A stretch of DNA of 64,000 bases from Candidatus Latescibacterota bacterium (lineage in GTDB: Bacteria > Latescibacterota > CBDEFO01): NCBI GenBank assembly GCA_965248755.1, contig OZ252149.1, positions 1,216,001-1,280,000 on the forward strand. The letters are read 5' to 3'. Under the pieces are notes generated by a model. That model saw only the letters and a list, made by a program, of their open reading frames with translations, had not been told where the DNA came from and searched no databases. Each line of letters starts with the position of its first letter. Within the stretch, counting starts at the first letter, position 1. The position numbers and the translations under genes are program-made. Of this stretch, positions 4,809 to 54,442 are shown one piece after another.

Positions 4809-4913
4809 TTTGCAATTCTCCTGAATTTGTCGATTTTTCACAAAGATCTATAGGATTGGCTCCTTAAAATCCCCGCGTGTCTTTGGGAGAACCGAAAGGG
4901 AAAGACCTTACTG

Positions 4914-19703: not shown

Positions 19704-19779
19704 GGGCTATTAGCTCAGTGGATAGAGCGTTGGTCTCCGGAACCAAAGGTCGCGCGTTCGAATCGCGCATAGCCCGCCA
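19704..19779 (+). tRNA. tRNA-Arg (anticodon CCG)
   Basis: Acceptor stem GGGCTAT/ATAGCCC, anticodon arm TTGGT-CTCCGGA-ACCAA, T-loop TTCGAAT, encoded CCA; 76 nt. Confidence 0.97.
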
Positions 19780-19781
19780 GA

Positions 19782-19820
19782 AATAAGGCCCTGTAGTACA
19801 AACACTTACAGGGCCTTATT
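19782..19820. terminator. Bidirectional hairpin terminator between the tRNA and the integrase
   Basis: 14-bp perfect stem AATAAGGCCCTGTA/TACAGGGCCTTATT. Confidence 0.8.
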
Positions 19821-19851
19821 TAATTTTTAAATGTTTCTAAATGTTTGCGAT

Positions 19852-19872
19852 TTGGGATACTATTGGGATACT
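19852..19872. repeat. Putative integrase arm-type binding sites
   Basis: TTGGGATACT direct repeat x2 (19852-19861 and 19863-19872); TAAATGTTT also occurs twice just upstream. Located between the att site and the int stop. Confidence 0.55.
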
Positions 19873-19888
19873 TTTCTGCCAGATTACT

Positions 19889-20983
19889 CTATTTTCCTAT
19901 GTTTTCGTCTACCTTCTTTTTGCCATAGTGCAAAGCATTGACCAAGTCCTTGACGTGGCCAGGTGCAAGATGAGCATACTTTAAGGTTGTGGAGTAATCA
20001 CGATGGCCAAGCAGTTCCTGGACAAAACGAAGATCAACTCCGTTCATGACAAGATGACTGGCAAACGTATGCCTTAATAAATGCAGCTTTAGGTCCGGCA
20101 CTCCAGATTCTTCAGAAAGTTTCTTTAAGCTTCTGTCAATTTTGTCTGTCAATCTATTCCCCAAATAGGTAAGAACATACTCTGAATTGTAGTTGTTGTG
20201 TTTCTGATATTTTTTGAGCTGCTCCAAGACCTCAAGAAGGACTTCAGTCATTCCAATGTATCTTACTCTATAGTTTTTAGTGTGCCAGTCATCTTTTGAC
20301 TCTATCTTCACAGTTTTATTCTTGAAATCGGTGTCCGTCCATTTATAGTTGAATAGCTCCTGTTTGCGCATTCCAGTTTGTAAACCAACTTGAATGGTTG
20401 GATACAGGTGGGCATATCTCTTGCCTTTCTTTCCTAACCCAATTGCAGCTTGGAGCACTGAATCAACTTCATCCTCGCTGAGAAATCTTGGCTCTCTCTC
20501 AGGGATTTTTGGACGTTCAACGTCACGAATGGCATTGGAACCCTGGTATCCTAACCTTGCAGCAATCTTCATCATATGAGAAAGAGTAGACATCTCGTGA
20601 ATTACTGTGTATGGACTTGCACCAGAATTTAGACGCTTCCTTTTGTATTCCTCGCATTGGCTGAAACTTATGCTTGACAGAGGCATACCACCAAAAGCCG
20701 GAATTAAATGCTGGTTGATATGAGATCTGTTGGAGAGAAAGCTTCTCCTTGATTTGTTCAGTTCAGCATATTCAAGGTATTGCTTGCTAAACTTTTCTAA
20801 AGTCACTTCCTTTGATTTTACATCAAGCCCAAACTTACCTTCAACAAATTCCTGCTCCCATTTTCGTGCAACTACATCAGCCTGTTTTTTCGTGCCGACA
20901 GCCTTTCTCGTAATACTACCGTCAGGAAGCTTAATGCAGGCATACCATTTTTTGCCTCTTTTGACAGTGAAAGCCATAATCAT
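19889..20983 (-). CDS. Tyrosine recombinase / phage-type integrase
   Basis: TGMRKQE, HLLRHTFAS and LLGH...TLKY catalytic residues; N-terminal arm-binding region. Confidence 0.95.
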   Translation of the reverse strand: MIMAFTVKRGKKWYACIKLPDGSITRKAVGTKKQADVVARKWEQEFVEGKFGLDVKSKEVTLEKFSKQYLEYAELNKSRRSFLSNRSHINQHLIPAFGGMPLSSISFSQCEEYKRKRLNSGASPYTVIHEMSTLSHMMKIAARLGYQGSNAIRDVERPKIPEREPRFLSEDEVDSVLQAAIGLGKKGKRYAHLYPTIQVGLQTGMRKQELFNYKWTDTDFKNKTVKIESKDDWHTKNYRVRYIGMTEVLLEVLEQLKKYQKHNNYNSEYVLTYLGNRLTDKIDRSLKKLSEESGVPDLKLHLLRHTFASHLVMNGVDLRFVQELLGHRDYSTTLKYAHLAPGHVKDLVNALHYGKKKVDENIGK

Positions 20984-21219
20984 TATTCCTTTCTTCTACT
21001 GAAATGAATTAGAATATCATCCCACCTGAACCTAATCAATCTACCTATCCTGATAACCGGAAGCTCTGCTCTGTGCGTCATCTTGTAGACAGACGAGACA
21101 GGAATTTTTAACTTTTCAGCCAACTCTTCTGGTGTTAGTAGCTCATCAACAATGTCTTGAGAAGTATAAACTCTCTCATCATTAAAGGAATTGGACATTG
21201 CCTCGTCTGCGCTCATCAT
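20983..21219 (-). CDS. Excisionase-family HTH protein
   Basis: LLTPEELAEKLKIPVSSVYK...LPVIRIGRLIRF; abuts int; GGAGG RBS. Confidence 0.9.
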   Translation of the reverse strand: MMSADEAMSNSFNDERVYTSQDIVDELLTPEELAEKLKIPVSSVYKMTHRAELPVIRIGRLIRFRWDDILIHFSRRKE

Positions 21220-21412
21220 TTTTTGACCTCCCTTTCAAGGCAGTTATTTTCCGACACCGCTCCTAAAAGATCATAAAAAACTATAAACACAACAACTTTC
21301 GGACGACTCAAAAAACCTGAAGGTTAGTAAGGTTATCTTTATTTTTCTTTCTTTCATAGGTGAACCATACCGCTCCCCTTGACAGAGCGACAAATATTTC
21401 GCAAATTGGGGT

Positions 21413-21742
21413 TTGAGAAGGGAGGTCAAGGTGTCGAGCCCCGAAGTGAAAGATGGTAAGCGCTGGACGGCGACCCGTAAGGGAGAGATTGTGTTGGCTC
21501 TTTTGAGAGGAGCAGATCTATCTGAGGTGTGTCGTAAGAATGGAATTAGCCAGTCGCAGGCGTATGCTTGGCGTGATAGTTTCTTAGAAGGGGGCCAGGA
21601 GAGTCTGAAGTCTCGGCGTGGTCGCAAGGATCCGAAGGAGCGAGAGGTTAGCCGGTTGGAGCGCAAGGTAGGGCAGTTGACGCTCCAGTTGGAGATACTC
21701 GAAGAGGTAGCCCGTCTAAAAAAAACGAAGCGGTTGCCTTGA
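21413..21742 (+). CDS. IS3 transposase OrfA (HTH)
   Basis: HTH (LSEVCRKNGISQSQAYAWR) plus leucine-zipper-like tail; A8 run at 21718-21725. Start may be GTG 21431. Confidence 0.88.
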   Translation: MRREVKVSSPEVKDGKRWTATRKGEIVLALLRGADLSEVCRKNGISQSQAYAWRDSFLEGGQESLKSRRGRKDPKEREVSRLERKVGQLTLQLEILEEVARLKKTKRLP

Positions 21743-22602
21743 GTGGGCGGTTTTTGGGTCGAGGCTATTCCCGCAAGGTGGTAGCTTTGGCTTTGGGTTT
21801 GCATCGTTCGACTCTGTATAGGTTTAGGGATAGAGGTGTCAGTTCTTCTGTTAAAGAGCCTGTGATAGATGAGGAGCTTGCTTTTCGTATTCGAGGGATA
21901 CTGGACCAAGAAGAGGCATTTGGTCACAGGCGGGTTTGGGCGCATCTTCGTTTCAAGGAAGGGGAATGTGTCAACGTTAAGAAGGTTCATAGGATAATGA
22001 AGCTTAAGGGGTGGCAGTGTAAGCTGTGGAATCGTCCCGGGAGAAAGGGGCCACAGGTTGCCCAGAAGCGTTCTGTGGTGGATAGTCCCGACAGTTTGTG
22101 GTCGAGTGACTTGACAAAGATTTACTGTGGAAAAGATGGTTGGTGTCCTCTTATTGCGGTGGTGGACAACGGAAGCCGGGAGGTTCCTGGGTATCGTTTT
22201 AGTCGAAAAGGGAGGGCACTGGAGGCCACAGATGCCCTGGATCGGGCCGTGATCTCTCGATACACTTCCAAGGAGGCTGTCCCCCAGGGTCTCACTTTGC
22301 GCTCTGACAATGGTTCCATCTTTTTGGCTCGGGCCTATTTGGCCAGTACCGAATATTGGGGAATTCGTCAGGAATACATACCAAGTGGTAAACCCGATTG
22401 GAACGGTGTTGTAGAGCGTTTTTTCAGGACCCTCAAGCAAGAGTGTGTTTGGCTTCACAAGTTTGAATCCTTTGAACAGGCTGAGAAGATCATATCTCAG
22501 TGGATCGATAATTACAACAAGAACAGGCTTCATTCATCCCTGGGATATAAGACCCCAAAAGAGTGGAGAAAACAATTTTATCTACTACCCCAGGTTGCTT
22601 AA
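21739..22602 (+). CDS. IS3 transposase OrfB (DDE/rve core), -1 frame relative to OrfA
   Basis: WSSDLT, SDNGS, NGVVERFFRTLKQE and RLHSSLGY motifs. Confidence 0.93.
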   Translation: MSGRFLGRGYSRKVVALALGLHRSTLYRFRDRGVSSSVKEPVIDEELAFRIRGILDQEEAFGHRRVWAHLRFKEGECVNVKKVHRIMKLKGWQCKLWNRPGRKGPQVAQKRSVVDSPDSLWSSDLTKIYCGKDGWCPLIAVVDNGSREVPGYRFSRKGRALEATDALDRAVISRYTSKEAVPQGLTLRSDNGSIFLARAYLASTEYWGIRQEYIPSGKPDWNGVVERFFRTLKQECVWLHKFESFEQAEKIISQWIDNYNKNRLHSSLGYKTPKEWRKQFYLLPQVA

Positions 22603-22659
22603 TTGGTGTCGCTTTCCTGGGAAGCAGTACAGAACTCCTATATAGCTGTCTCCTTCTGT

Positions 22660-23322
22660 TTAAAGATTCCTGATGATGTCCGTAAACCTGTCTAGCTCTT
22701 CCCCTGTAAGAGGCTTGGTGAAATAAGCCAACACACCCGGGCATCCACGTCCATCCACAATACTTCGATAATCCTTCAGGTAGCTAAGGAAAATTATCGG
22801 AATATCTCGGATTGTTTCTATTTTAGTCCTATGCCAAGCCATCTTGATACCATCCAGGCGAGAGAGGTCCACCTCTGAGACAATAAGGTCTGGATCCTCC
22901 CGTTCCATCACATCCAACGCCATCTCTCCGTCCTCAACTGTCAAAACATCAGCTCCCACTTCCTGTAGAATAGCTGTGATCTGTCGAATTACATTCGGGC
23001 TGTCATCCACGATTAAGACTTTCGGACAACTAACTCGCACCTTCTCTGGAGGAGATTCTTGCTCATTACCTATCAGTTCTTGTCCAGGGTCATCTTTCTT
23101 ACTTACAGTTTTTGAGGTATTTAGTCCCTGTCCAGGGTCACTCCTTGAAGCTTGGACATCTTTCATTACATCCGATGCTCGGATTCGCAATTCAGCCCCA
23201 TAATCCCCTTTCACATACATACTTCGATACCGTTTTTCGTGAACACGACGTCGGACAGTCTTTTCAGAAACTCTTAATAAATCAATAACTTGCCTTACTG
23301 ATAGCCATTTGCGGGTTGTCAT
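22660..23322 (-). CDS. Excisionase/MerR-like HTH fused to an atypical receiver domain
   Basis: N-terminal LSVRQVIDLLRVSEKTVRRR; C-terminal VLIVDDS...PDLIVSE...IPIIFLS...KP, with Glu at the phosphoacceptor position. Confidence 0.82.
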   Translation of the reverse strand: MTTRKWLSVRQVIDLLRVSEKTVRRRVHEKRYRSMYVKGDYGAELRIRASDVMKDVQASRSDPGQGLNTSKTVSKKDDPGQELIGNEQESPPEKVRVSCPKVLIVDDSPNVIRQITAILQEVGADVLTVEDGEMALDVMEREDPDLIVSEVDLSRLDGIKMAWHRTKIETIRDIPIIFLSYLKDYRSIVDGRGCPGVLAYFTKPLTGEELDRFTDIIRNL

Positions 23323-23452
23323 GGTTCACTGCTTTCTGTTGAGACTCTTTTAAGCTTTGTCCAGGGTAGTTTTGACTTCGTATAACCCGAATTATACGAA
23401 ATACTATTTTCTCCTTTGCAATCCAAGGGCCTCATATATAAGAGAAAATGTT

Positions 23453-24421
23453 TTATTCCTCCGGTGCAGGTAAACCTCTGATAACATCCTGCTTTCGTTC
23501 CTGGTCTGAGTGCAGATATAGGGCTGAGGTTTCAATACTTGCGTGTCCTAAAAGCTCCTGAATATCCTTGATATTGGCTCCGGACTTTAACAAGCTGGTC
23601 GCAAAAGTATGCCTGCATTTGTGGGGACTTATGTCCTTCTGAATCCTCGACTCCTTAGCAATGTTTTTAACAATCCATTGAATTGTTCGATCACAGAGAG
23701 GATTCCCAGATTTGAGATTTATGTAGCAGTACTGATTCTGGAATTGGAGACTGATCTTCGCCTTCATCCATTTTTTGTAAGCATCCACCACAAGGCCATG
23801 GAGGGGTATATCCCTATTTTTCCCTCCCTTGGCATCCAGAATTTCCAGATAAGGAGAGTCGGTATCGATGTCCCGAAAATGAGTTGTATCCAATTGTGAT
23901 GCTTTATTAACTCTGATGCCAGTAAAAATAAGAGTGATCAAAAGAGAATGGTTCCTGATACCTCTTTGGTCGCTTTCTGATGTAGAATCTGAATTAAATG
24001 TAGATCTATGATAATTGATAATTTGAAAAACCTCTTCCTTGCTCAAAAATACAGGCTTGCCCTGAGACCTCTCCCATCTGGGAAGATCATCTTCTGCTTG
24101 CTCAACTGGATTGCTCGAAATATTACCCGCTCTTCTATGGTAGTTAAAGAATGAAGACAAGGTAGCAAGTCGGCGCTTTATAGAACTGCGTTTATGTCCA
24201 AGGTCTTTTTCCATAAAATCAAAGAAGGCTACAATATCATCAGCATCACATTTAAGTAGAGACTTGCGAAGATTTCTCTGTATAAACTCAAGGTCCTTGA
24301 TATAATTGTAAAGAGTAAGAGGGCGAAGACGTCTCCTCCTTCCTTCGATGAACTCCTTGATGGATTCATCTTTTACGTTGAGTTGCCGGATGATGTCGCT
24401 GTCAAACTTACTGAGTGGCAT
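23453..24421 (-). CDS. XerC/XerD-like tyrosine recombinase
   Basis: N-terminal SAM-like domain, TGIR, KGGK, HKCRHTFAT, LLGH...Y. Start at ATG 24421 behind GAGGA. Confidence 0.92.
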   Translation of the reverse strand: MPLSKFDSDIIRQLNVKDESIKEFIEGRRRRLRPLTLYNYIKDLEFIQRNLRKSLLKCDADDIVAFFDFMEKDLGHKRSSIKRRLATLSSFFNYHRRAGNISSNPVEQAEDDLPRWERSQGKPVFLSKEEVFQIINYHRSTFNSDSTSESDQRGIRNHSLLITLIFTGIRVNKASQLDTTHFRDIDTDSPYLEILDAKGGKNRDIPLHGLVVDAYKKWMKAKISLQFQNQYCYINLKSGNPLCDRTIQWIVKNIAKESRIQKDISPHKCRHTFATSLLKSGANIKDIQELLGHASIETSALYLHSDQERKQDVIRGLPAPEE

Positions 24422-26084
24422 TGCTGTCCTCAACAGATTCGTAGAAGATCTTCACCTCAATATTGTTCTGCAACTTTTTAGTTATAATGCGGTGAATTTT
24501 ACCGTCCCAGTCTGAATAATGATACGCCTTACGCTTTAGCTCTGAGATTTCAGCGTTTAGTATTTGAATTTTCAGATTGAGATTGGATAATTTTTCTTGA
24601 TGGTCTACCTCTGCCTGTTTATGCCTAAGAGCCAAACTCTTTAAATCTGCTTGAATGGATTGGAGGCGGTTTGCCTTTTCCTGGACCTCTGACTTTGTGG
24701 TTCTTCCCAGATGCAGACGATGCTGATAGTCATTCAATTCATTTTCAGCCTGTTGTAATTTCCCCTTTAGCTCTAATTCTTCTGCTCTGAACTTCTCTAT
24801 CTTTTCATCCTGCACTTTGCTCTCATTGTGCAATTCATCCTTTGTATTCTCCAATTCCTGCTTTTTCAGGGTTATCTGTTCTATATGCCTTTTAATCTTT
24901 GCTAACAAATCCCCTTCCTGAGTAGCCATTCCCTCTTTTACGGCAAGGTCCTCAACATCTTGGATATGGAATGTATAGCTTGCCCATCTCTTCGATTTTT
25001 TAATAACTACAATGTCCTGAGGATAAAGAGTATAGACCAGCGAGATCTTTCCCCTTTCAACGATTAAATGTTCAAGCCCTTCTAAATCTTGATAAGTTGC
25101 GTATATTAGCGATAAAATCTTTCCAGATATGCTAACAGGATTGAAATGTAATGGAACTTTCTCAAGGGAATAATCATCAGTCAAAATAAGTGAAGGACTA
25201 ATCAAAAAATGCGAAACGTTTACATCCATCTCATTAGCTATCTCTCCTATAGCTTTTCCTGTCAAATCAATCTCCACCGGACCTTGTCTTTTATTTTTTC
25301 CCCCTCGATAGATGTGGATTTTATCAGCTCGTAGGATAGCTTTTGGATCTGTCCTGTCGTCTCCGATAGTCATCAGCCTATTATCAGGACTGCGCAGAAT
25401 GAGACGGCTGCCATCCTGTCCTATTACCATCCATTTTCCCTGCACTCTTATCTTCGTTGTCTGATGCCAGGCCGTAAAATCTGCCCAAAGTTGATAGTGG
25501 GACCCCCATTTCTCATAAAATTCTATGGATGCCTTTACATCTGCAAAACCCCAATTTAATATCCATCGTGGACCGATCCAATTTACAGGAAGTAAGACGA
25601 ACACCGTAAGTCCCAATAGAGTCCATCTAAATTTCTCTTCTTTCTTGCTTCCTGTGGGGATCCAAGTCTTAGTATTGGGAGAAAACTGCCACATCTCATC
25701 TGAAAAAGGCGACATCCACTTTATCCCATTAGGGGATGCGCTGTCCAAAGCTTGATGGGAAGCCAGGCCAAGCAGAAAGGCCGTATAACAGTCTGCTCTG
25801 TTTAGCCAAAGAAGAGGAGATAGAAATACTGCAGTGAGAAACAAGAACGGTGCGCTGTGGAAGAAATCTCTATGAACAACAGAAATACCAAATTTTCTTA
25901 GAAGAGGTACTAAACCTATTGCTCTTCCAACTACTGCTGTCTCCCTATCTACATCAGAAATGATGCTCCCCACGGTGCATGATATGAGGCACAAAAGACC
26001 GGAGAACAGATTAAAGTCGAAACCCCTGAAAATATTCAGAAATAGAAAAAGGGCTATCCCCGCTACAACGTGTGTCTCAATCAT
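24408..26084 (-). CDS. YdjM-like membrane metal-dependent hydrolase fused to an MFP/HlyD-like lipoyl-coiled-coil region
   Basis: TH, SDVD, HRDFFHS and SHQALD motifs in TM helices; C-terminal VKEGMATQEGDLLA half-lipoyl motif, long coiled coil and SDWDGKI second half. Confidence 0.75.
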   Translation of the reverse strand: MIETHVVAGIALFLFLNIFRGFDFNLFSGLLCLISCTVGSIISDVDRETAVVGRAIGLVPLLRKFGISVVHRDFFHSAPFLFLTAVFLSPLLWLNRADCYTAFLLGLASHQALDSASPNGIKWMSPFSDEMWQFSPNTKTWIPTGSKKEEKFRWTLLGLTVFVLLPVNWIGPRWILNWGFADVKASIEFYEKWGSHYQLWADFTAWHQTTKIRVQGKWMVIGQDGSRLILRSPDNRLMTIGDDRTDPKAILRADKIHIYRGGKNKRQGPVEIDLTGKAIGEIANEMDVNVSHFLISPSLILTDDYSLEKVPLHFNPVSISGKILSLIYATYQDLEGLEHLIVERGKISLVYTLYPQDIVVIKKSKRWASYTFHIQDVEDLAVKEGMATQEGDLLAKIKRHIEQITLKKQELENTKDELHNESKVQDEKIEKFRAEELELKGKLQQAENELNDYQHRLHLGRTTKSEVQEKANRLQSIQADLKSLALRHKQAEVDHQEKLSNLNLKIQILNAEISELKRKAYHYSDWDGKIHRIITKKLQNNIEVKIFYESVEDSNATQ

Positions 26085-26962
26085 TTCTTCCCCTTGTTTT
26101 TGAGAAAAGGAAGGACGAATTTACCCAGGAAGATACCCAAGATCATGCCCAGACAACCCAGGACGATGCTGACACGATCATGTTCTCCCTCGACCAGTCT
26201 TGACAGATACCTGTTAAAGATCAAAACAAACAGCATAGGTATGCACACCCAAAGGTACATATATCGAACCTTAGCTGTATGGAGCTTCTCAACGCTATCT
26301 ATAATCTCATTAGTCAGGTGTCGAGACTTCTGATAGCGTTCCAGAGCTTTTTCAATCAAACCAGGATACCCTTTGGTCTTTATAAACAATTCTCGCTTAA
26401 CATATCCCAGGTCTTCTATAACCCACCCTTCAACGAGATACTCGATGTATGCTCCTGAATCCTTCTCATCCAAACCAGCGATCTCCATAGGACGACCCAG
26501 CCGCTCGATGAAACTATTGTTCTTGTTCAAACTATGTGCACATACCAAAAATGTTACTCCAAGGCTATGAAGCTCACAAAGAGCTCTTAGAGCATTACCA
26601 CTGCCGGGCAAGCTCCCCTCAAAGTCTACGATACAGATTACTTGAGACCCCACACTTTTGATCTTACTCCTTACCATGCCCGCTAGTGCTGAAGTAGTAA
26701 GGCTCCTATTTCCACTGGAGAATATCTTCTTTTCCTCTTCACATTTGAGCTGAAAACAGATTTCTTGTAATAGAGGCTTTTCGTTACGCACGGATGTCAA
26801 AAAAACAACCTCTTCAAAACTCTCCTCACAAAGTCGTCTGAGGACCTGGCGAAGGATCGTGCTTGACCCACATCCTAGCTCCCCCAACAGGACAACAGAG
26901 TCGCCCTGCTTCAGAGATGACGTGGTGTCCTCAGTGATATTGTCTATTCCAAAAACCTTCAT
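26081..26962 (-). CDS. P-loop ATPase-like protein with two C-terminal TM helices
   Basis: VVLLGELGCGSST (Walker A lacking Lys), CIVDFE, TKGYPG helical region, hydrophobic C-terminus; ATGA overlaps on both sides. Confidence 0.72.
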   Translation of the reverse strand: MKVFGIDNITEDTTSSLKQGDSVVLLGELGCGSSTILRQVLRRLCEESFEEVVFLTSVRNEKPLLQEICFQLKCEEEKKIFSSGNRSLTTSALAGMVRSKIKSVGSQVICIVDFEGSLPGSGNALRALCELHSLGVTFLVCAHSLNKNNSFIERLGRPMEIAGLDEKDSGAYIEYLVEGWVIEDLGYVKRELFIKTKGYPGLIEKALERYQKSRHLTNEIIDSVEKLHTAKVRYMYLWVCIPMLFVLIFNRYLSRLVEGEHDRVSIVLGCLGMILGIFLGKFVLPFLKNKGKK

Positions 26963-27654
26963 TCTTCAACTCTCTTCCAAGGTCTATCCCAACCGGTTAA
27001 CTCCATTAATTCTTGTAGAACTATCACCTGCTCATCTTCATTATCCAACCTCATAGACTCAATGCCATAGAACTCTATCCGAGCGCTTTGAAGCTGGTCT
27101 AGTGTTGCCTCTTGAGTTTTGTATCTATTGTCATAGAACTCCATTAACTCCCTTAATACCCCGGCCTTCTGATTGTAGAGCGTAGCTTTTCGTTTTAGTC
27201 CCTTCCAAAGCAGATATGTTTTGGTAATGTCTCGGATAAGAGATATGTGAGTATTCTTCAGTTCTCTACGGGCTGTCTCCAACTTCAACTTTGCTTCTCT
27301 GTGATCGTATCTTCCTGTGTTAAAAAGTCTGTCCAGATCCCAACTCAGACGGACGAAAGTTGTCTGCTCTTCAATCAAACGACTACCTTGCATAGCTTCG
27401 AGATTAGAGCCCCAGCTCAAAGACATTGATGGGATAAGTCGGGATGCTATGTTTGTTCTAAGAACATCCAGCTCTGCCAGCTGTACTTTACCCTCTGCTT
27501 CCTGCAGAAAAGGAGAGTGGATTCTTGCATATTCAATCATCTGTTCCAGCGACAACTCTTCAAAAGAATCTGGATACTCATCTGCAGGAGTTGGCTGTTC
27601 GAGAAAGAGGACGATAAGAAATCCCAGAATCAATTTAGAACTCAGATGTCTCAT
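26959..27654 (-). CDS. TolC/outer-membrane efflux protein family, single-repeat (half-length)
   Basis: Signal peptide; LSLEQMIEYARIHSP, P-S-M-S-L-S-W beta strands, LSWDL, DITKTY, LMELTG, typical of one OEP repeat. Confidence 0.72.
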   Translation of the reverse strand: MRHLSSKLILGFLIVLFLEQPTPADEYPDSFEELSLEQMIEYARIHSPFLQEAEGKVQLAELDVLRTNIASRLIPSMSLSWGSNLEAMQGSRLIEEQTTFVRLSWDLDRLFNTGRYDHREAKLKLETARRELKNTHISLIRDITKTYLLWKGLKRKATLYNQKAGVLRELMEFYDNRYKTQEATLDQLQSARIEFYGIESMRLDNEDEQVIVLQELMELTGWDRPWKRVEE

Positions 27655-28987: not shown

Positions 28988-31231
28988 ATGACATCAAATT
29001 ATGTTTTCTTCTATGGGGATAGACTTCGTGAGGCAAGGTGTAAGAAAGGACTTACACAACAGGAAGTGGCGGATAAAGTGGGGGCATCACAGCCGGAAAT
29101 TTCAGACTATGAACGAGAGATAAAAGGATGTTTTATGGGTAGAGCTAGAAAGATAGTAGATTTTTTTAAGGTACCTTACGAAGAGCTAGTTCAGAGAGCA
29201 GAAACTATAAAAGGTGAGGTTCAAATTCCGTCCTCTCCTCCTCCTCGTGATATCGCTCATTTTAAGGGTCGAACCGATGAAATCAACAGGATCAAGAAAA
29301 TCCTAAGAGGTGAAGGTAAAGTAGGCATCTTGGGAATGGCAGGCATTTTTGGTATGGGTGGGATTGGAAAGACAGCGCTAGCTACGCATGTGGTGGCGGA
29401 TCCAGAAATACGAAAACAATTTCGTGACGGCGTAATATGGTTCGAAGTAGGGGAAGAACAGGACGTAATGATCGTTTTAGATCGACTCGGAGGACACTTG
29501 AAGTCTCCCAGTATCGGGAGAAAAGAGACAGAAGGAGACAAGCTCTCTTCCTTACTTGAGATTCTGTCTGAACTCCACGCGCTGATCGTATATGATAACG
29601 TATGGAGCGACCAAATAGCCCAAACTTTGGTGCGTCATTACGGAACATGTTCAGTGATTCTTACCGGCCGTAAGACGTTGGCTTTAGGATTAGTTGAGCC
29701 AGTTCCTCTTAAAGGTCTGGAACGAGATAAAGCCAGAGAGCTTTTCTGTTTGCTATCGGAATTAAATGAGGCACAACATGGAGAGATAGTAGATGAAATC
29801 TGTCGTCTCGTATCCTATCATCCACTCGCCATTAAGATATTGGCCACGAATCCGATCCGGAAGATGGCCCCCGAACATCTTCTCAAACGATTAAGTACTC
29901 CTGAGCGGCTCAAGCTCCTTCAAGATACATCAGAGGACAAGGACAACAGTGTGCGGGTGTCCTTTGATATCTCCTTTGAGGATTTAGAGAAAAAAGACCA
30001 ACGACTCTTTGCAGCACTAGGTACTTTTGGAAGGCCAAGTTTTACACTAGAGGCAGTGGAAGCTGTAATGAATAAAACTGGTTTGGAGGACGATCTTGGA
30101 ATTCTGATTAACTGTTCAATTATAGAAAGAGAAGGAGAACGTTATCGACTTCACGACCTAATGTGGGACTACGCAAAGGAAAAGCTGTTAGAACTGGAAG
30201 ACAATGAAGAACTTTCTGAGCGTATGGCGACCTACTTTTTGAATGTGGCAGAAGAAGATGCCAGTATACTGGAAACAGATAAAGAGAACGTCTTCTTCGC
30301 TATGGACTGGTACTACGAACGCAAAAGATGGGAGAGTGTATATCGGTTCATATATGAAAGAAATAACAAAGGCACATTTGACTTTCTCAATTTTCACGGC
30401 TACTGGAGCGAGGGAATTAAGCAATGTGAGAAAGCAATAGAGGCTGCAAACCGAGCAGGAAATCATATGCGTGAAGGGGCAATACTTAGTTATCTGGGAA
30501 TCTTTTATCAACATCGTGGCAAATTCAATCAGGCGGAAAAGATCTATACGCAGTCTTATGAAATCTTCAGGGAACAGAAAGCCAAGGAACAGATTGGATC
30601 ACTACTTCATCAACTTGGTAGAGTTGCTCAGGAACGTAAGGACTTGGACAAAGCCGAAGAATCTTATTTGAAAGCTTTAGATTCTTTTGAAGCTCTTGAG
30701 GAGACACTGGATAAGAAAAGGACAATTCAATTGCGCAGGGCAAGAACAATTCAGCAATTGGGAAGAATACATGAGTTGCGCTGTAATTGGGACAAGGCCG
30801 AGGAACGACATTGTGAAAGTTTGGAGATCAGAGAAAGCATTGACGATCCACATGGGAAGGCACAATGCCTTCAGCAACTTGGGAAGATTGCAAAAATCAA
30901 AGGAGACTTAGAAAAAGCTAAGAGTCTGATGAGAGAAAGCCTCCAAATAAAGAGAAAAATCGGAGATATCCAAAATGCAGGTAATAGCTTAGCAAGCCTT
31001 GGTCTGATCGCTAAAGATGAAGAGCATTTTGAGGATGCTTTCAGCATGCTTTACGAAGCGAAGTCTATATTCCTCTATCTTGAATCACCTAAGCTGAAGA
31101 ATTTGGAGGAAGAATTATCCGATGTCCGTTCAAAGCTCTCGCCGTCGGTGGTCCACAAACTTGAGCAAGAGACAGAAGCGAAGCTGAAAGACTGGCCTGC
31201 ATTATCTACGCTGTACGATCATCAGAAGTAA
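28988..31231 (+). CDS. XRE-HTH / NB-ARC (STAND NTPase) / TPR protein
   Basis: Cro/C1 HTH (LTQQEVADKVGASQPEISDYE), FKGR, GMGGIGKT, IVYDNVW, HPLA, LHD, many C-terminal TPRs. Confidence 0.92.
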   Translation: MTSNYVFFYGDRLREARCKKGLTQQEVADKVGASQPEISDYEREIKGCFMGRARKIVDFFKVPYEELVQRAETIKGEVQIPSSPPPRDIAHFKGRTDEINRIKKILRGEGKVGILGMAGIFGMGGIGKTALATHVVADPEIRKQFRDGVIWFEVGEEQDVMIVLDRLGGHLKSPSIGRKETEGDKLSSLLEILSELHALIVYDNVWSDQIAQTLVRHYGTCSVILTGRKTLALGLVEPVPLKGLERDKARELFCLLSELNEAQHGEIVDEICRLVSYHPLAIKILATNPIRKMAPEHLLKRLSTPERLKLLQDTSEDKDNSVRVSFDISFEDLEKKDQRLFAALGTFGRPSFTLEAVEAVMNKTGLEDDLGILINCSIIEREGERYRLHDLMWDYAKEKLLELEDNEELSERMATYFLNVAEEDASILETDKENVFFAMDWYYERKRWESVYRFIYERNNKGTFDFLNFHGYWSEGIKQCEKAIEAANRAGNHMREGAILSYLGIFYQHRGKFNQAEKIYTQSYEIFREQKAKEQIGSLLHQLGRVAQERKDLDKAEESYLKALDSFEALEETLDKKRTIQLRRARTIQQLGRIHELRCNWDKAEERHCESLEIRESIDDPHGKAQCLQQLGKIAKIKGDLEKAKSLMRESLQIKRKIGDIQNAGNSLASLGLIAKDEEHFEDAFSMLYEAKSIFLYLESPKLKNLEEELSDVRSKLSPSVVHKLEQETEAKLKDWPALSTLYDHQK

Positions 31232-31502
31232 CAGAAGCTGGTGCCTATAGAAACTGAAATACAGAAGTACCCGATCAACAACATAATGATATGACGTTTC
31301 ACCTTTTCAGACACAGCTTTGCTAACACCGAAAGAGACTAAAGAACCATGAAAGGCCGACGCCAAAATCCTTGTTCATACCGCAATCAACACTAATCTGG
31401 ATGAATACGGCACCTAGGATTTGGAAGAGGTGCAAGGAAATTACGAGAAGCTAACAACAGTGATAAGCAGAACAAATGATCTCATTATAAAAGGAAATAG
31501 CA

Positions 31503-32267
31503 ATGTCAGATAATCTGATCTTTGTAAGCTGTGGACAACAAACGCCCGAAGAGAAAGACTTAGGCACTGCTGTAAAGAACTTAATCGATTCAACACCAGG
31601 TTTCAAAGCCTACTTTGCAGAACACGAACAAAGTCTCGATTCTGATGTACTAAATATTTTCAAAAATCTTTGGGAATGTTCTGGATTTATAGCATTGCTC
31701 CATAAGAGGAATAGGATGGCTGAAACAGAAGAATGCTACCCCTCTGTCTGGGTAAACCAGGAGATAGCGATAATTGCTTATCGACAGCATTTTGAAGCAA
31801 GAGAAATCCCTATTCTTGTATATAAGGATGATGAAGTTCGGGTAGAAGGCTCGATGGCTTCGCTTATCGTAAATCCGCTCACTTTGAAATCGAAACCAGA
31901 TGTTCTGGAACGAACAGGGAAATGGTTATCAGATCCTGGCTCACCTTGGGCTACATCAGGTAACTACGCTATCTTCTTATCAAAATGGATAAAACTTCCC
32001 CCATATTCAACTAAAGTTATAGCTGCTCTTTTGGACGAGGGTGGCAATAACGTAAATGAGTCTGTTATTAGAATACGCCTCCAGGAAAGCTACGGATTCT
32101 CCAAACATGATGCCAGCCAAGCTGTTACAGATTCACGTATACTATTCAATAATACAGGTCTAGTGCAGTTGATTACAAACATCCATACTGGAGATGAAAT
32201 GACGATCAATCCGTACTGGAAATGGCGTATTGCGCGAAGGATCAAAGAAGAGCTACAAACAAGTTGA
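31503..32267 (+). CDS. TIR-like / nucleotide-processing domain protein with a C-terminal helical (wHTH-like) region
   Basis: IFVSCGQ, SGFIALL, SVWVNQEIA (TIR-type catalytic Glu context), IPILVY. Confidence 0.65.
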   Translation: MSDNLIFVSCGQQTPEEKDLGTAVKNLIDSTPGFKAYFAEHEQSLDSDVLNIFKNLWECSGFIALLHKRNRMAETEECYPSVWVNQEIAIIAYRQHFEAREIPILVYKDDEVRVEGSMASLIVNPLTLKSKPDVLERTGKWLSDPGSPWATSGNYAIFLSKWIKLPPYSTKVIAALLDEGGNNVNESVIRIRLQESYGFSKHDASQAVTDSRILFNNTGLVQLITNIHTGDEMTINPYWKWRIARRIKEELQTS

Positions 32268-32550: not shown

Positions 32551-34134
32551 TCAAACCCTCTTCACTATGACCCTTTTTAATTCCTTCCCTAACCTTCTCG
32601 CATCCTTTACATAGACTACATTACGATATCCAAAGGCAGATACCAGATCCTTTAAATCACTACCTTGGATACCAATGCAGATGACCTCTATAGATAAACG
32701 ATGAGCCTGCTCAAGCAAATCCCTTATTGCATATGTCCCGGTTATGTCTCCATCTGTAAGCATCACTATTAGCTTCGTCTGGGCTTTTACTTCTTTAGCC
32801 ATCTTCAGACACTCATGGAGAGCCAAAGGCAGATTAGTCCCTCCTTCTGGGGATAGTGCAACAGGAATACTGCTCAAGACACCTGATAAAGATTTACCCT
32901 CCTTGATCCTTGCAACATCCTCATTAAATCCAAGGAGTTTGATCTCACATCTGGGAATAGCTACAAGCGCAGTATACATTGTAGCTGCTACCTCCTGGCA
33001 GACCTGGGACTTACCATCACATCCCATAGAGCCTGACCTATCAAAACAGAGGATAACCAAAGACTCATCTATCTGCCTTTTTATCCTCAACACATCACGA
33101 TGTATCCTCGCATTCCCTGGCCGAGTTTTAATCTCATAGAATCTACCAGGATGAAAACTGCTTCCAACTACAGAGGCAGTCCTTCTGGCTATAGTTCTGG
33201 AAAAGAACAAGGGCCTTAAGATTCTGCGAACCTCCCCGGCAAGTTTTTCATCCACCTTTGGCTTTTTCTCTCTTTCAACAATTTCCTCGACCGAATGATT
33301 TCTTTTAATAGAGAGGCTACTCTTTTCTGATTTCCCCTCTTTTCTAATCTCCTCACCAATAAACACCAAATCTTTTTGAATCCCCGCTTTTTGTATCTGA
33401 CTTTCCAATCTCGCTGCTTCTTCACCACTTAGAGGAACTCTCAATCGGGAAGCTCTCTCAGCCTCTTCTAACACCAGTTGTATCACTTCATTGGGCTCTA
33501 CCCAGAAATCCTGGAAGATAGAAAATAGAGATTTCAAAAGGGCAGGTCTCTCCTCAACTTTGCATCTCCTTGCTTCTACTAAAATAGGCTTCAACCTCTC
33601 AAAATAGTCATGCAGGGGATGATCTTCCGGAAGCTTTCTGACTTCCTTTTGCTTATATTTTATCCTTAACTTCCTCAAGAACATCAAAACCATTAGAAAG
33701 AGAACTGAAAGCTTGTCCCTGTTTGTCTCCAGCGGTAAATTATCTATGTCCTCCATCTGATGATAAGTGACGTTAACCGCAGTCAGAGTATATGGAATCG
33801 AACCAGGCCATCTGTTTGGTACAAAGGTGAAGTCATTTGCCTCACAGATGAGATTGTTCAGCGCTAGTGGCTGTAATCTATGATTCTCTCCACTTAGAAT
33901 ATGCCCACACTCATGGTAAGCAAAACCTATAACAATTGAAAATAGCAGCTCCTGAGAAGCTTTCTTTACAAACTCTTCCCCTAGAAAATCTGATAATGTC
34001 TGTTCAGAAACAGGGAGGTGTATTTTATTACCCTTAGTGACTTCAACTCCCGGCTGTGCCCTGTCAATCAACTTTAAATCGACACCAATGACCCGTCTCA
34101 AATACCAATCTATATGCGAAGCCAAGTTATCCAT
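32551..34134 (-). CDS. Zincin-like metallopeptidase-vWA domain protein (CobT-like architecture)
   Basis: YHECGH (HExxH) with downstream E; MIDAS DRSGS, GGT, LTDG. Confidence 0.85.
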   Translation of the reverse strand: MDNLASHIDWYLRRVIGVDLKLIDRAQPGVEVTKGNKIHLPVSEQTLSDFLGEEFVKKASQELLFSIVIGFAYHECGHILSGENHRLQPLALNNLICEANDFTFVPNRWPGSIPYTLTAVNVTYHQMEDIDNLPLETNRDKLSVLFLMVLMFLRKLRIKYKQKEVRKLPEDHPLHDYFERLKPILVEARRCKVEERPALLKSLFSIFQDFWVEPNEVIQLVLEEAERASRLRVPLSGEEAARLESQIQKAGIQKDLVFIGEEIRKEGKSEKSSLSIKRNHSVEEIVEREKKPKVDEKLAGEVRRILRPLFFSRTIARRTASVVGSSFHPGRFYEIKTRPGNARIHRDVLRIKRQIDESLVILCFDRSGSMGCDGKSQVCQEVAATMYTALVAIPRCEIKLLGFNEDVARIKEGKSLSGVLSSIPVALSPEGGTNLPLALHECLKMAKEVKAQTKLIVMLTDGDITGTYAIRDLLEQAHRLSIEVICIGIQGSDLKDLVSAFGYRNVVYVKDARRLGKELKRVIVKRV

Positions 34135-34145
34135 TACTTCCTCCT

Positions 34146-35540
34146 TTACATATCCCTTATCACAATCCGTTCAGGTATTGCGACATTTACATCCTGACGT
34201 ATCCTCTGGGCAGCTATCTGTCTTATCCCTACATCAGGAATACCATTTAGAATGTGCTCTGTGACAGCAATAACAACTGCATCCTGCCTTGAGCTTCTCA
34301 AAACAGCGGTCCAGATAGCATCTGCAACCTGTGAATATCCTGTATCCCACCCAAGTGGATCCTTATTCTGATTTAGAGCCTTGAACAGAGCCACACCAAA
34401 ATCCCAGTTGACATAGTTACTTATATCTGACACTACTTCCTTAAGCTGCTGAAAGCTCCTTTTCTTGGTTACAATGGCCTCCAAAATCTTCCTTATCTCC
34501 TCATCCTTTGTAGAATATCCCTGATATAAAATCACCAATCTTCTAATTTCAGCATTAGAAAGCCTCTTTAAATCATCCGTCAGATACTTCTCTGAAGAGA
34601 GGGGATTGCCTGTTAGAATAAACTGGACGTGTGAAAACTCTACATTGTCTAAAAGCTTTCCGTCCTTGCTGCTCTGTATGGTGTAGCTTCTATCCTCATC
34701 TGAAAATAGTCTGTAAAACTCCCTTCTTGTATCGTCTGTAAAGCTGTTATACTCTTCTAACACCACAAGCAATCTTAATCTCTTGTCTTTCGTCTCTCTG
34801 GCAATTCTGCAAAGCACTCCCTCAAGGATGAATGTACCATCTGCATTGAAATCATCTCTGTCAAATAATCTATCTCCTTCCAGTCTGGCATTGGCATCAA
34901 TTATGTAGCCTGCAAAGCCCTTCTTGTTGAGGTGTGATATTGCATAACGGGCCAAACATGATTTTCCAGAACCTGTAGGTCCGAGAATAGCGATAGCTGG
35001 AGTACCTTCATAGATTCGCTGGACAAGAGATTCTAAAACTACTTCATCTGGAATAAAGTTTTCAGGAGCTTTAATCTTAAAGTGTCCAGGAACTCCATTC
35101 CTCCCCATCTTCTCCCTTACATAGTAACCCAAAATCTTCAACAGATCCTTGTTCTCCTCTACGGAGTATTGCTGCAACACATAGGGATCAGACTGCACAG
35201 TAACTTTAAGAGATTTACAGCTTGCTCCTCCCTGTTCATACTGACTGATTACAATATTCCCAACAAGGCTTTCTGAATGCCTTTTGAACGCCTCATCTTG
35301 AAGATATTGATCTATTGACAGAGCATCCTGAAGAATGTCTATAATATCCTCACTTTCCAAAAGCTGCCTCCCCTCATTCTCACCAAGCTCTGTACGGACA
35401 TTTGCTATCAGATGCCACGATCCATCATTATCCTTTTCTAACTCAAATTGAACCCTACCAGAAAGAACCTGCTCTTTGTTCTCTGTTGCTATGACAGTAG
35501 CTGAAGGGATTGTAGAGTTTAACAGAACTTCCTCTTTCAT
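34146..35540 (-). CDS. MoxR/CobS-like AAA+ ATPase
   Basis: GPTGSGKS, LVVLEEYN, TGNP and AEIRRL (Arg finger) motifs. Confidence 0.85.
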   Translation of the reverse strand: MKEEVLLNSTIPSATVIATENKEQVLSGRVQFELEKDNDGSWHLIANVRTELGENEGRQLLESEDIIDILQDALSIDQYLQDEAFKRHSESLVGNIVISQYEQGGASCKSLKVTVQSDPYVLQQYSVEENKDLLKILGYYVREKMGRNGVPGHFKIKAPENFIPDEVVLESLVQRIYEGTPAIAILGPTGSGKSCLARYAISHLNKKGFAGYIIDANARLEGDRLFDRDDFNADGTFILEGVLCRIARETKDKRLRLLVVLEEYNSFTDDTRREFYRLFSDEDRSYTIQSSKDGKLLDNVEFSHVQFILTGNPLSSEKYLTDDLKRLSNAEIRRLVILYQGYSTKDEEIRKILEAIVTKKRSFQQLKEVVSDISNYVNWDFGVALFKALNQNKDPLGWDTGYSQVADAIWTAVLRSSRQDAVVIAVTEHILNGIPDVGIRQIAAQRIRQDVNVAIPERIVIRDM

Positions 35541-37060
35541 TATTGACCACCTCCATTCTCAAATCTTCTCTCAAACCTCGGAACTCTCACAACAGCAGAA
35601 TAGGGATAACCTACAGCCTGTACAACAGCGATCCCCATAGTTAAGAGCGGCTTGGAAATCATCGAGCTACACTCAGACAGCATCGGAGCAGCTTCCACAA
35701 GTGCTCTTATGTCTGATCTGTTCAGATGAAAGGCAATAGTAGAGTATATCTGTCCATAGACACTGCTAGGGATGCTTTTGGGACTTTGTGTCAGCAAACA
35801 CAGAGTAACTCCAAACTTCCTGCACTCTCGACAGAAATCAGATATATGTTCTTCAGCAAATTGAATGAAGTGCTGAGCCTCATCTACAACAACAAAGAAT
35901 CTCTGGGGAATATTCTTGTGCATCGAGCTCTTTCCTGCCTTCTGAAGCCTGTTAAGCAGAAGTTTTACAAACATCCCCTGGTAGTAATCAGACAGATTAA
36001 AGGTGTTTATCAGAACAATCTTTCCCTGTTTTAACTCTCCGAGAATCTGGGAGATAAGTCTTGGTGCAGATATATCCACAGTTTGCTGTAGGATTCTTGC
36101 CTGCCTGCACACTGTATCTATTGTGGGAATAATAGCTAGACCTGTAGTAACAGTACTCCCATCCTTCTGCTTAATCGTCTCCCTCTTAAGCCCATAGAGA
36201 TCATCACTCACTTCATAGTTTGCCAATATCTCAATAAACTTCCTTGACTCTCTGGAGTGCATATGTGTCCATAAATCTTTTTGAGCAGTGGAACAGGAGA
36301 ATTGATCAAAGATGTCAGAAAGATTTATCTCATCTGGAGAGAGTTTCAATTTTTCATTGTAACCTATCATCACTATTCTCTTGTCTTCCAAAGCACTCAA
36401 TCCTTTAGTCCCTTTATCATTTGGATTATCAACTCCAATATCCGGATGTCCAAAGACTAACATAGGAAGGGGTTCTGGAAGCTCTAAATTATTAGTGATA
36501 AGCTCCTTTAAGAAATTCGTTTTCCCTGTTCCATTTTTGCCAAAGACAGCCATGTGCCGTGTTAAGGCTGTGTCTATCCCCAACTTGAAGTCTACTTGAG
36601 AGACCTTATATGCAGAAGCAATCTTACCTACGATTACTCCATTAACAGCCGAAGGAGGATACAGCATCTCAATATCCTGATTCGTAGCTCTGAAAACAGG
36701 CTGGAAGTATCCGATGCCTCCAGTGTATTCTACAAGCCTGCCATTATCCAGCACAGAACCCATTGGCTCGATTACTACCCTTTTATAGACCATTCCCTCG
36801 ACCTCTGGATCAGGCACATTACTGGTCTTCAAACAGCTTTTGGCTATTCGAGATATCTCACTGTCCCTTGAGAAGTCATGGGCATCTAATACCGCTGTAA
36901 TCCTTCCTACAGTCTTTTCTATCCTGACAAAGTCAAGACACTGGACAGCACCTAATTTTACAGCTTCGCTATCAGCCCTTGCCAGAATACATCCATCCTC
37001 ATTCGTGCCGATAGTGAGAGCAATGGGACGTTTCTTGCTTTGTCCTTGTGTTTTTTTCAA
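35540..37060 (-). CDS. HerA/FtsK-superfamily ATPase (DUF87-type)
   Basis: HAS-barrel-like N-terminus, RHMAVFGKNGTGKT, VVVDEAQHF, RECRKFGV, TQSP. Confidence 0.88.
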   Translation of the reverse strand: MKKTQGQSKKRPIALTIGTNEDGCILARADSEAVKLGAVQCLDFVRIEKTVGRITAVLDAHDFSRDSEISRIAKSCLKTSNVPDPEVEGMVYKRVVIEPMGSVLDNGRLVEYTGGIGYFQPVFRATNQDIEMLYPPSAVNGVIVGKIASAYKVSQVDFKLGIDTALTRHMAVFGKNGTGKTNFLKELITNNLELPEPLPMLVFGHPDIGVDNPNDKGTKGLSALEDKRIVMIGYNEKLKLSPDEINLSDIFDQFSCSTAQKDLWTHMHSRESRKFIEILANYEVSDDLYGLKRETIKQKDGSTVTTGLAIIPTIDTVCRQARILQQTVDISAPRLISQILGELKQGKIVLINTFNLSDYYQGMFVKLLLNRLQKAGKSSMHKNIPQRFFVVVDEAQHFIQFAEEHISDFCRECRKFGVTLCLLTQSPKSIPSSVYGQIYSTIAFHLNRSDIRALVEAAPMLSECSSMISKPLLTMGIAVVQAVGYPYSAVVRVPRFERRFENGGGQ

Positions 37061-42048: not shown

Positions 42049-42789
42049 ATGAAAATTGAACAAACAACTTCGTCCACAGTTACAAAACTCTGGACAGACT
42101 TGGAATCACGTGTACAGCAATCGAAGTGTCTGGAGGAAGCCGCCCAAGAGTTGGCCACTGCGCTGCATACACAGTTCGATGAGTCAGTTGTTATCACCCG
42201 AGTCTTTGTGACTGTTCCTTTTGACGCCTTGCCGTCGACGAACAAGGAATTTGTTCAGAAACTGGCTGAGTCGGCTGGGGCAGTATCCGAGTTGAAGACA
42301 ACCACCCCTGTGCTCTCGCTTATCGGGACCCATGGCCAGGAGGAGGACTGGTGTGACCGCCGTAAGTCGAAAGGTCATGTGGGAATTCCGTTGATTTCCT
42401 CGTCCTTCGTCGGCGCTATTCCGATGATCTCCCGTCTGATCAGAGAACTTGGTATACCTCTGGACTGGGTCGACAGCCACGATGAAGAAATCATAATAGA
42501 AACTATAGGAAATTCGGTGGGTTTGTTTTTCGTAGAAAACGCTGCCGAAGCCACAGATCACGAGGGTAGGAAGATAATTGCGGCACAAGACTTTGTTTCT
42601 GACTATAACGTGAAAAGCGTTTTTGGCACTGGAGGAGCGTATTCTAGCGGTCAGATGATTGTGATCGTTGTATTCTGCCGTGATGTCTTTTCACGAGCCA
42701 CTGCCGAGCGTTTCCTTGCACTAGCGAACTTGTTCCAGAGCAAGACCGCCTCCCTCGTTGAAACCAAGAAAATTTTCTCCGATGGGTAG
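42049..42789 (+). CDS. Hypothetical protein (possibly GAF-like fold)
   Basis: Clean ORF with AGGA RBS; no motif confidently recognised. Confidence 0.7.
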   Translation: MKIEQTTSSTVTKLWTDLESRVQQSKCLEEAAQELATALHTQFDESVVITRVFVTVPFDALPSTNKEFVQKLAESAGAVSELKTTTPVLSLIGTHGQEEDWCDRRKSKGHVGIPLISSSFVGAIPMISRLIRELGIPLDWVDSHDEEIIIETIGNSVGLFFVENAAEATDHEGRKIIAAQDFVSDYNVKSVFGTGGAYSSGQMIVIVVFCRDVFSRATAERFLALANLFQSKTASLVETKKIFSDG

Positions 42790-45146: not shown

Positions 45147-45164
45147 ATGAAAAGGAGGATTAAG

Positions 45165-47087: not shown

Positions 47088-47096
47088 TTCTAAATT

Positions 47097-49875: not shown

Positions 49876-49988
49876 CTTGAAAACTAGCCCTTTCCGCGCA
49901 GATTGGATGTTAACACATCATTTCTTGGGTAAAACTAACTGTAACTATGGTTACAACATAGTGAAGTGCTCTTGGAGGTGATCCAGGT

Positions 49989-54420: not shown

Positions 54421-54442
54421 ACAATTGGGAAAGTATAGCTTC

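Follow-up and report, generated by a model that had tools for sequence, protein, structure and literature searches.

A conserved module of type I secretion-like parts, an AAA+ ATPase, and a YdjM membrane metallohydrolase on plasmids and islands: a candidate T4SS-independent DNA export channel

Introduction

What does a set of secretion-like envelope proteins do when it is encoded together with a DNA recombinase on an integrative element that has no recognised type IV secretion system (T4SS)? This question is raised by four coupled genes in a 64,000-nucleotide stretch of a Candidatus Latescibacterota genome (contig OZ252149.1, positions 1,216,001 to 1,280,000), hereafter the window. Tripartite pumps and type I secretion systems combine an outer-membrane efflux protein (OEP), a membrane fusion protein (MFP), and an inner-membrane energiser, which is normally an ATP-binding cassette (ABC), resistance-nodulation-division (RND), or major facilitator superfamily (MFS) transporter. 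An earlier note on the window had proposed that the four genes form a non-canonical trans-envelope export machine. Here, we report that an AAA+ ATPase, a YdjM-family metallohydrolase, a TolC-family half protein, and an MFP-like arm constitute a conserved unit, of which the tyrosine recombinase is a frequent partner and not a fixed one. The module is real, widespread, and apparently undescribed; it is new in architecture, and from its genomic context we infer, with a probability of roughly 55%, that it is a T4SS-independent channel for DNA export or transfer made of type I secretion parts.

Results

Domain composition of the four proteins

The four genes lie on the minus strand at 26959–27654 (231 aa), 26081–26962 (293 aa), 24408–26084 (558 aa), and 23453–24433. 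Their coupling through overlapping stop and start codons, pointed out in the earlier note, was re-found: 4-bp ATGA overlaps are present at 26959–26962 and 26081–26084, and the 14-bp overlap of the last two genes is valid with the ATG at 24421 taken as the recombinase start (323 aa).

The 231-aa protein (26959–27654, minus strand) is a half-length, single-repeat member of the TolC/OEP family with a signal-peptide-like N-terminus. It matched PF02321 with an E-value of 7.5e-11 and 42.6 bits (cut-off 22), with one repeat covering the whole 187-position model, and the best matches of its family profile in the PDB include CmeC, OprM, OprN, and TolC, which upholds the identity first proposed for it. 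A profile built without the window's protein still ranked that protein first in the genome (54.9 vs 28.4 bits). Because TolC subunits contain two repeats and assemble as trimers, a one-repeat protein would need six copies, and a channel of TolC size made from the 231-aa protein would require a hexamer.

The 293-aa protein (26081–26962, minus strand), initially described as a P-loop protein with two C-terminal transmembrane helices, proved to be an AAA+ ATPase whose C-terminal part forms a two-helix membrane hairpin. Its match to AAA_22 was under the Pfam cut-off (E = 2.8e-5), and the nearest folds to its predicted structure (pLDDT 84.1) were, in a near tie, Cdc6/Orc1 (Z 17.2), TnsC (16.4), MuB (15.9), and NLR (15.8). 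When the profile was built without the window's copy, this copy was again first in the genome (50.5 vs 27.5 bits). The Walker A motif retained its lysine in 53 of 55 family rows; in the window's copy, this residue is a serine, a change that the earlier note had missed, and the nearest relative is also degenerate. The window's copy is probably impaired in catalysis, may lack ATPase activity, and is perhaps a weakened or motor-less variant. The ATPase also has a GxP motif and a fold like that of STAND (signal transduction ATPases with numerous domains) proteins; despite these features, neither sensor repeats nor a PADLOC match was found for it.

The 558-aa protein (24408–26084, minus strand) combines a five-helix YdjM membrane metallohydrolase (residues 1–170), beta domains (171–355), and an MFP-like lipoyl/hairpin/lipoyl arm (365–552). 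The YdjM domain matched PF04307 with an E-value of 1.4e-19, and the metal ligands H5, D44, D46, H71, H76, H110, and D114 are intact and conserved in 79–81 of the 81 relatives' rows. Hydropathy and the bias of lysine and arginine gave five helices that place the loops bearing the metal ligands inside and the C-terminal domains outside, a pattern that fits a cytoplasmic metal site and an external C-terminus. The AlphaFold2 model of the whole protein had a pLDDT of 95.1. All eight Foldseek matches of the arm at E ≤ 0.001 were periplasmic adaptors (EmrA, HlyD, and MacA), and the profile search agreed, so that the MFP-like character of this region was borne out; residues 180–264 resembled the C-terminal barrel of TrmB (Z 12.2, root-mean-square deviation 1.7, 83 aligned residues). 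In excerpts of one study (PMC8557891), YdjM is related to alpha-toxin phospholipase C and S1-P1 nuclease domains and is proposed as a phospholipase toxin; given these ties, as they appear in the excerpts, both lipid and nucleic-acid substrates are possible. Some YdjM relatives are fused to nuclease domains, as read by eye.

The fourth gene (23453–24421, minus strand) encodes a full-length Xer-like tyrosine recombinase with PF00589 (E = 1.6e-31) and the N-terminal SAM-like PF02899 (E = 6.6e-9). These domains and the located catalytic motifs confirm its identity as a tyrosine recombinase, and its score is under the XerC/XerD cut-offs.

Conservation and linkage of the module

Word-index searches for homologues returned only the protein itself or one relative. 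A full HMMER scan of 1.84 billion representatives identified 325 YdjM-fusion relatives at E ≤ 0.001, and a genome scan gave 520 loci. Locus counts rest on the best 80 of these 520, which are mostly from Bacteroidota and Ignavibacteriota, with others from Gammaproteobacteria, Deinococcota, Omnitrophota, and further groups. The ATPase was present in 68 of these 80 loci, the OEP in 59, the fused arm in 57, and a nearby tyrosine recombinase in 35. Among the 34 loci with at least 8 kb on both flanks, the corresponding counts were 34, 33, 27, and 18. The linkage also held in reverse: when regions were fetched by the ATPase alone, YdjM was adjacent in 9 of 11, one of the others being at a contig edge and one lacking YdjM. 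The divergence of the ATPase and of YdjM was correlated (Mantel rho 0.78 for n = 51, vs 0.21 for the best of 500 shuffles), a value to which host kinship contributes. Gene order varied among relatives, and cyanobacteria and the genus here called g7 encode the arm in a gene of its own. The linkage is conserved over at least six phyla with intact reading frames. An RND gene was found downstream in 7 of 122 loci examined, and no transporter was a conserved neighbour; together with the AAA+ fold of the operon's NTPase, this is in line with the claim that no ABC, RND, or MFS energiser is present.

The recombinase behaves differently from the other parts. Fusions of its catalytic domain to the ATPase occur in 7 of 20 regions of genus g7, in 5 of 11 further regions, and on Flavobacterium and Spirosoma plasmids; in these fused forms, only the catalytic domain of the recombinase is present, and the domains score as ordinary PF00589 (E = 7e-41 and 5e-34). 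In a recombinase tree of 49 rows, the two fusion sets fell in separate parts and no single supported clade was formed. We had considered the recombinase as an obligate fourth subunit and rejected this, given its presence in 18 of 34 loci and a tree without a single lineage. The four-gene machine originally proposed therefore stands in part: the folds, the linkage, and the carriage on mobile elements support a non-canonical envelope machine whose ATPase, YdjM, TolC half, and arm occur together across phyla, but the recombinase as a fixed component does not hold.

In the window's own phylum, the ATPase profile matched 23 of 168 genomes, with up to four matches each, and no match was found in the one other genome of the window's genus. 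A metagenome scan for the window's own clade yielded one 2.2-kb fragment, interrupted by a transposase. Contigs from three of four public runs, which belong to one study and possibly to the source sample, matched the module, with long pieces identical to the letter.

Islands and plasmids carrying the module

The four-gene unit lies ~3.7 kb from a tRNA-Arg(CCG) gene (19704–19779). A 41-bp attL core inside this gene (19735–19775, plus strand) is repeated exactly at G000:C1:1287362-1287402, where G000 is the source genome, and the pair delimits a 51.6-kb tRNA-Arg island that extends ~7.4 kb past the window's end, an extent that the earlier note had missed. The GC content is ~0.42 between the att copies vs 0.49 genome-wide. 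An excisionase and an integrase (19889–21219, minus strand; PF12728, PF00589, and PF14659, with TIGR01764 above its cut-off) adjoin the unit on the tRNA-Arg side, as previously noted, with an IS3 and a response regulator between. The integrase, excisionase, and att repeats of an integrative element are thus all present in the island.

The island ORFs comprised 54 candidates in the window part and three from the adjoining piece (L001); 43 were scanned against NCBIfam and 39 against PHROGs, and the Pfam scan covered the window's ORFs apart from one outside the island (3528–4841). No T4SS family was identified among the 43. The VirB4-type ATPase PF19044 was found neither among the island ORFs nor in any of five near-complete carrier genomes (including G000), vs 7 of 14 controls, and the coupling protein PF02534 was found in 0 of the same 5 carriers vs 5 of 14 controls; ComEC, which occurs in all 5 carriers and in 10 of the 14 controls, was uninformative. 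No structural PHROG was detected among the 39 ORFs, in a scan that small coat genes can escape, and two other island ATPases matched terminase and Zot profiles in part, through their P-loops. A phage record collection searched with the module gave no match; one putatively viral IMG/VR contig (L117) carries YdjM, the recombinase, and the ATPase. The lack of T4SS and virion genes claimed for the element thus holds for the island and related elements as far as tested, and the island is an integrative element in which neither VirB4 nor a coupling protein was found. No origin of transfer (oriT) was identified.

Related elements are also associated with tRNA genes. In genus g7, the insertion behind tRNA-Phe that holds the module measures 7.7 kb or 25.8 kb, and the site is empty in one genome (G007); across these islands, the position of the module is fixed and the cargo varies. 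Many Bacteroidota loci have a tRNA-abutting integrase of the serine or tyrosine type after the module, whose surroundings include replication-initiator-like, PolX-like, and RadA-like genes. A second tRNA repeat was sought in the relative loci and none was found, so most of these elements are not delimited.

The carriers are plasmids and islands of 14–366 kb. Among complete plasmids with relatives of the module, 19 records (10 of them Thermus plasmids of 19–25 kb) were all typed as non-mobilizable, as were all records of two further sets (6 of 6 and 10 of 10; the sets overlap). Relatives also occur on plasmids of Nitrosococcus, Methylobacter, Allochromatium, and Bacteroidota, including Flavobacterium. 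Of 39 cyanobacterial plasmid records with the module, 38 were non-mobilizable and one was conjugative, whereas 75 of 183 control plasmids with a CyRepA1-type replicon were mobilizable or conjugative and 108 were non-mobilizable (Fisher p = 4e-7; 0.011 when each genus is counted once).

Eleven plasmid records were inspected, ten entire and pSYSX over its first 25 kb. All 11 encoded the ATPase and YdjM, 8 the arm, 6 the OEP, 9 a tyrosine recombinase, and 7 a thermonuclease; ArdA was present on 2, and a DUF87 ATPase lay inside the operon on 2 (pSYSX and p11801_1). Three Thermus plasmids contained little besides the module and rep-like, parA, recombinase, restriction, toxin–antitoxin, and thermonuclease genes. 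The order on pSYSX is ATPase, YdjM, DUF87 ATPase, arm, an OEP-like protein (recognised by eye, with no Pfam match), and thermonuclease, and a 14.4-kb Flavobacterium plasmid carries an OEP-like gene, a recombinase–ATPase fusion, and YdjM beside rep and parA.

Several observations concern the regions around these modules. Compact Bacteroidota and Ignavibacteriota elements (L041, L043, L045, L054, L056, L061, L075, and others) carry two conserved lipoprotein-like genes and an unknown 430-aa gene, together with replication-initiator-like, PolX-like, and RadA-like genes; their large serine recombinase overlaps a tRNA. Three 21-bp palindromic repeats lie upstream of the g7 operon (L142:11873-11940), and iterated 8-bp repeats lie upstream of the ATPase and recombinase genes of pL4C (L153:6712-6838); these are candidate operator, centromere, or transfer-origin sites.

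Other genes and features of the island

A response regulator with helix-turn-helix and receiver domains (22660–23322, minus strand; PF00072 and PF12728) lies next to the unit. Relatives, too, have a receiver protein after the module, and in g7 loci its cluster (c10) is found beside the module. A second, frameshifted copy of the regulator lies next to a recombinase fragment elsewhere in G000: this remnant of the same element family (G000:C1:1968761-1969771; L002:8759-9835) retains a recombinase C-terminus with 72% identity. In the public contigs, the integrase–excisionase–regulator part (window 19746–23433) had ~2x the depth of the module, although depth is no copy number; these contigs end at 23404–23433 or 23594–23623, and another variant may share this end and then diverge. 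A short motif occurs at 23081, 23129, 23358, 24195, and 27718, that is, near the response regulator and ahead of the OEP gene, with 7 matches in 10.3 kb vs 0.9 expected from the genome, the motif having been picked post hoc. Promoter and terminator scans gave results no better than chance. A second tRNA-Arg-like att piece (G000:C1:902333-902428, 86% over 97 bp) and another integrase just past attR (G000:C1:1287551-1288306) suggest tandem or related islands.

The island cargo includes Gabija, a type IIG restriction enzyme, a single-stranded DNA-binding protein, and a HerA–MoxR–vWA unit. Gabija lies at the island end, past the window (L001:601-5107), with GajA intact and GajB broken by IS3 copies. 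The HerA/TrwB-like ATPase (35540–37060, minus strand) matched PF01935 (E = 5.1e-9) and weakly TrwB (E = 6.6e-4) and was under all NCBIfam cut-offs; no NurA match was found among the island ORFs scanned. It is coupled to MoxR-type AAA and vWA genes (32551–37060, minus strand), for which PADLOC reported nothing beyond HerA. The ATPase is possibly an accessory motor or part of this separate unit, itself possibly an unlisted defence or chaperone unit. An HTH–NB-ARC–TPR STAND protein is followed by a 254-aa protein without a family match that looks TIR-like by eye (28988–32267, plus strand). The stretch 52173–56033 (minus strand) encodes an XerA-like recombinase that carries a zinc ribbon, along with a fragment of a CedB-like ATPase and small hypothetical proteins, and a near copy of the recombinase region with an identical score lies at G000:C1:2715881-2717110. 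A cluster of secreted-type genes (44478–50345, plus strand) encodes a FlgD/type IX secretion-like tail, a CBM9–TPR protein, two AhpC/TSA proteins, an NHL propeller, and a small cysteine-rich protein, and may be a peptide maturation locus. A 246-aa gene without a family (42049–42789, plus strand) has a 93% identical copy outside the island (G000:C1:1208591-1209328).

Discussion

Function of the module

We favour DNA or nucleoprotein export because the parts would span the envelope from the cytoplasm to the surface, the place of the energiser is taken by an ATPase whose closest folds include rings and filaments that bind DNA, and this ATPase is in some cases fused to a recombinase. The same reading is suggested by the location of the module, which occupies the usual position of transfer genes on small plasmids, is rare beside T4SS or relaxase genes, and is accompanied by ArdA and nucleases; ArdA and secreted nucleases are genes typical of transferred DNA. 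Six half-TolC proteins and six arms would form a MacA/TolC-like tunnel over both membranes, anchored by the YdjM helices, which would also provide the inner-membrane gate. The membrane-tethered AAA+ ring would grip the element's DNA at this gate, and the cytoplasm-facing metal site of YdjM, with its phospholipase C/P1-nuclease fold, might nick or trim DNA or open lipid. In two lineages, the recombinase is fused to the ATPase; its part would be to provide a monomeric circle or nicked substrate. Exported DNA could enter a neighbour on contact or through the neighbour's competence system, and the usual secreted nuclease would remove stray DNA. In its assembly, substrate, and direction, this scheme is drawn from genomic context. 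A broader proposal, which we hold tentatively and at somewhat less than even odds, is that the module (the half-TolC and MFP tunnel, the YdjM gate, and the membrane-bound AAA+ ATPase, sometimes with its own recombinase) is the core of an unrecognised horizontal-transfer machinery. Through it, many plasmids and islands now counted as "non-mobilizable" would transmit themselves without a T4SS, among them those of cyanobacteria, Thermus/Deinococcus, Bacteroidota, and Gammaproteobacteria.

Several observations weigh against DNA export. The Walker A lysine is absent from the window's ATPase and its nearest relative, and the fold ties with STAND immune switches, which are not translocases. The OEP was undetected near the module in 20 of 20 g7 regions and in 5 of 11 plasmid records, and the arm in gammaproteobacterial loci (6 of the 7 misses among the 34 loci) and on Nitrosococcus plasmid A; in these variants, the missing protein may have diverged, be supplied by the host, or be lacking altogether. 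Only 18 of 34 loci have a tyrosine recombinase at a distance of 10 kb or less, the recombinases are not one supported clade, and on Thermus plasmids the recombinase is in a separate unit. Furthermore, the neighbour profiles were derived from the very loci counted, the best 80 loci lean toward Bacteroidota and Ignavibacteriota, MOB typing overlooks divergent relaxases, and the test and control plasmid sets overlap, are unequal in size, and include kin, which makes for a weaker test.

Some of these observations lend themselves to other explanations. If the STAND-like ATPase sensed phage or an incoming element and set off YdjM and the tunnel, with depolarisation or remodelling of the envelope as the result, the module would be an envelope defence or exclusion system; the tie with NLR/CED-4 proteins, the GxP motif, the phospholipase toxin role proposed for YdjM in the excerpts of PMC8557891, and the presence of Gabija and a type IIG restriction system in the island all agree with this. 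However, PADLOC gave no match for the ATPase, OEP, or recombinase and only a coiled-coil JetC match for the arm, the module keeps its place in the g7 tRNA-Phe islands while the cargo changes, and cargo of this kind is not expected to shun conjugative plasmids or to be fused to recombinases, so we regard defence as unlikely. Non-canonical type I secretion of a protein (the element's nuclease or lipoproteins, for instance) without passage of DNA appears less likely again. Outer-membrane factors and MFPs do normally transport proteins or small molecules, and thermonuclease, ComEC-like, and lipoprotein-like genes recur next to the module, but no substrate gene is common to every lineage and none lies in the window's operon, and the recombinase fusions and the scarcity on conjugative plasmids would be left unexplained.

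A membrane tether for plasmid maintenance or vesicle packaging, with the ATPase–recombinase holding DNA while YdjM and the arm link or remodel membranes, would account for the Orc1/TnsC/MuB-like fold, the rep and parA neighbours, and the variants without a detectable OEP or arm. Tethering does not need a TolC-family protein, however, and Thermus plasmids already have parA and a separate recombinase; we place this explanation below protein secretion. Chance assembly or decayed efflux genes might be suspected from the loss of the Walker A lysine in the window's copy and from its few close relatives, but is highly improbable and, for the family, is refuted by linkage over at least six phyla, intact frames, and retained ligands. 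DNA export thus remains the reading that we prefer. If it is true, a four-part substitute for the T4SS would represent a new route of gene transfer and a role for the YdjM family; we know of no earlier TolC-type channel for DNA. Even without DNA transport, a TolC/MFP tunnel combined with an AAA+ ATPase and a membrane metallohydrolase would be an undescribed envelope machine. Its carriers include ten natural Thermus plasmids of 19–25 kb and Synechocystis pSYSX, the latter with two copies, in hosts with good genetics.

Comparison with known systems

A literature search, mostly of open-access texts without supplements, found no description of the module. Filamentous phages export DNA without lysis through a membrane-anchored pI/Zot ATPase and an outer-membrane secretin. 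The module likewise pairs a membrane ATPase with an outer-membrane channel, but its ATPase is of the AAA+ type, no coat genes were recognised in the island ORFs scanned, and no record of the phage collection matched.

Among plasmid studies, the excerpts of PMC4599208 state that pTCCB09 resembles pL4C and mention only a partition ATPase and an integrase, and those of PMC10667661 treat small Synechocystis plasmids and do not cover the module. One precedent in transfer is transjugation by Thermus ICETh1, which the abstract of PMC5365140 describes as T4SS-free and tRNA-integrated, with the donor pushing DNA out and with TdtA, NurA, and a restriction enzyme. HerA-like ATPases likewise occur in the window's island and inside two cyanobacterial operons. 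However, TolC, MFP, and YdjM are not named in that abstract, and in the module, it is the channel parts that form the core, a HerA-like gene being an optional addition. A tyrosine-recombinase fold in DNA transfer is known from the MOB_M relaxases (TcpM, MpsA, and MobK), which, in the excerpts of bioRxiv 10.64898/2026.01.13.699239, act together with a T4SS and count as no more than remote relatives of recombinases; the recombinase domains of the module, by contrast, score as ordinary PF00589.

With other YdjM/YbcI membrane hydrolases (PF04307), the module's protein shares the N-terminal domain and the histidine and aspartate ligands, but its subfamily adds the beta domains and the arm. Five short YdjM genes on viral contigs occur without any module partner.

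In its outer parts, the module is like type I secretion systems and tripartite pumps (HlyBD–TolC, MacAB–TolC, and EmrAB–TolC), with which it shares a TolC-family protein and a lipoyl/hairpin/lipoyl adaptor. In contrast to these systems, its OEP has one repeat instead of two, its adaptor is joined in one protein to a YdjM metallohydrolase or encoded next to it, and the module is carried on mobile elements. Its sole conserved NTPase is a two-helix AAA+ protein and not an ABC, RND, or MFS transporter, and the module therefore falls outside the type I systems.

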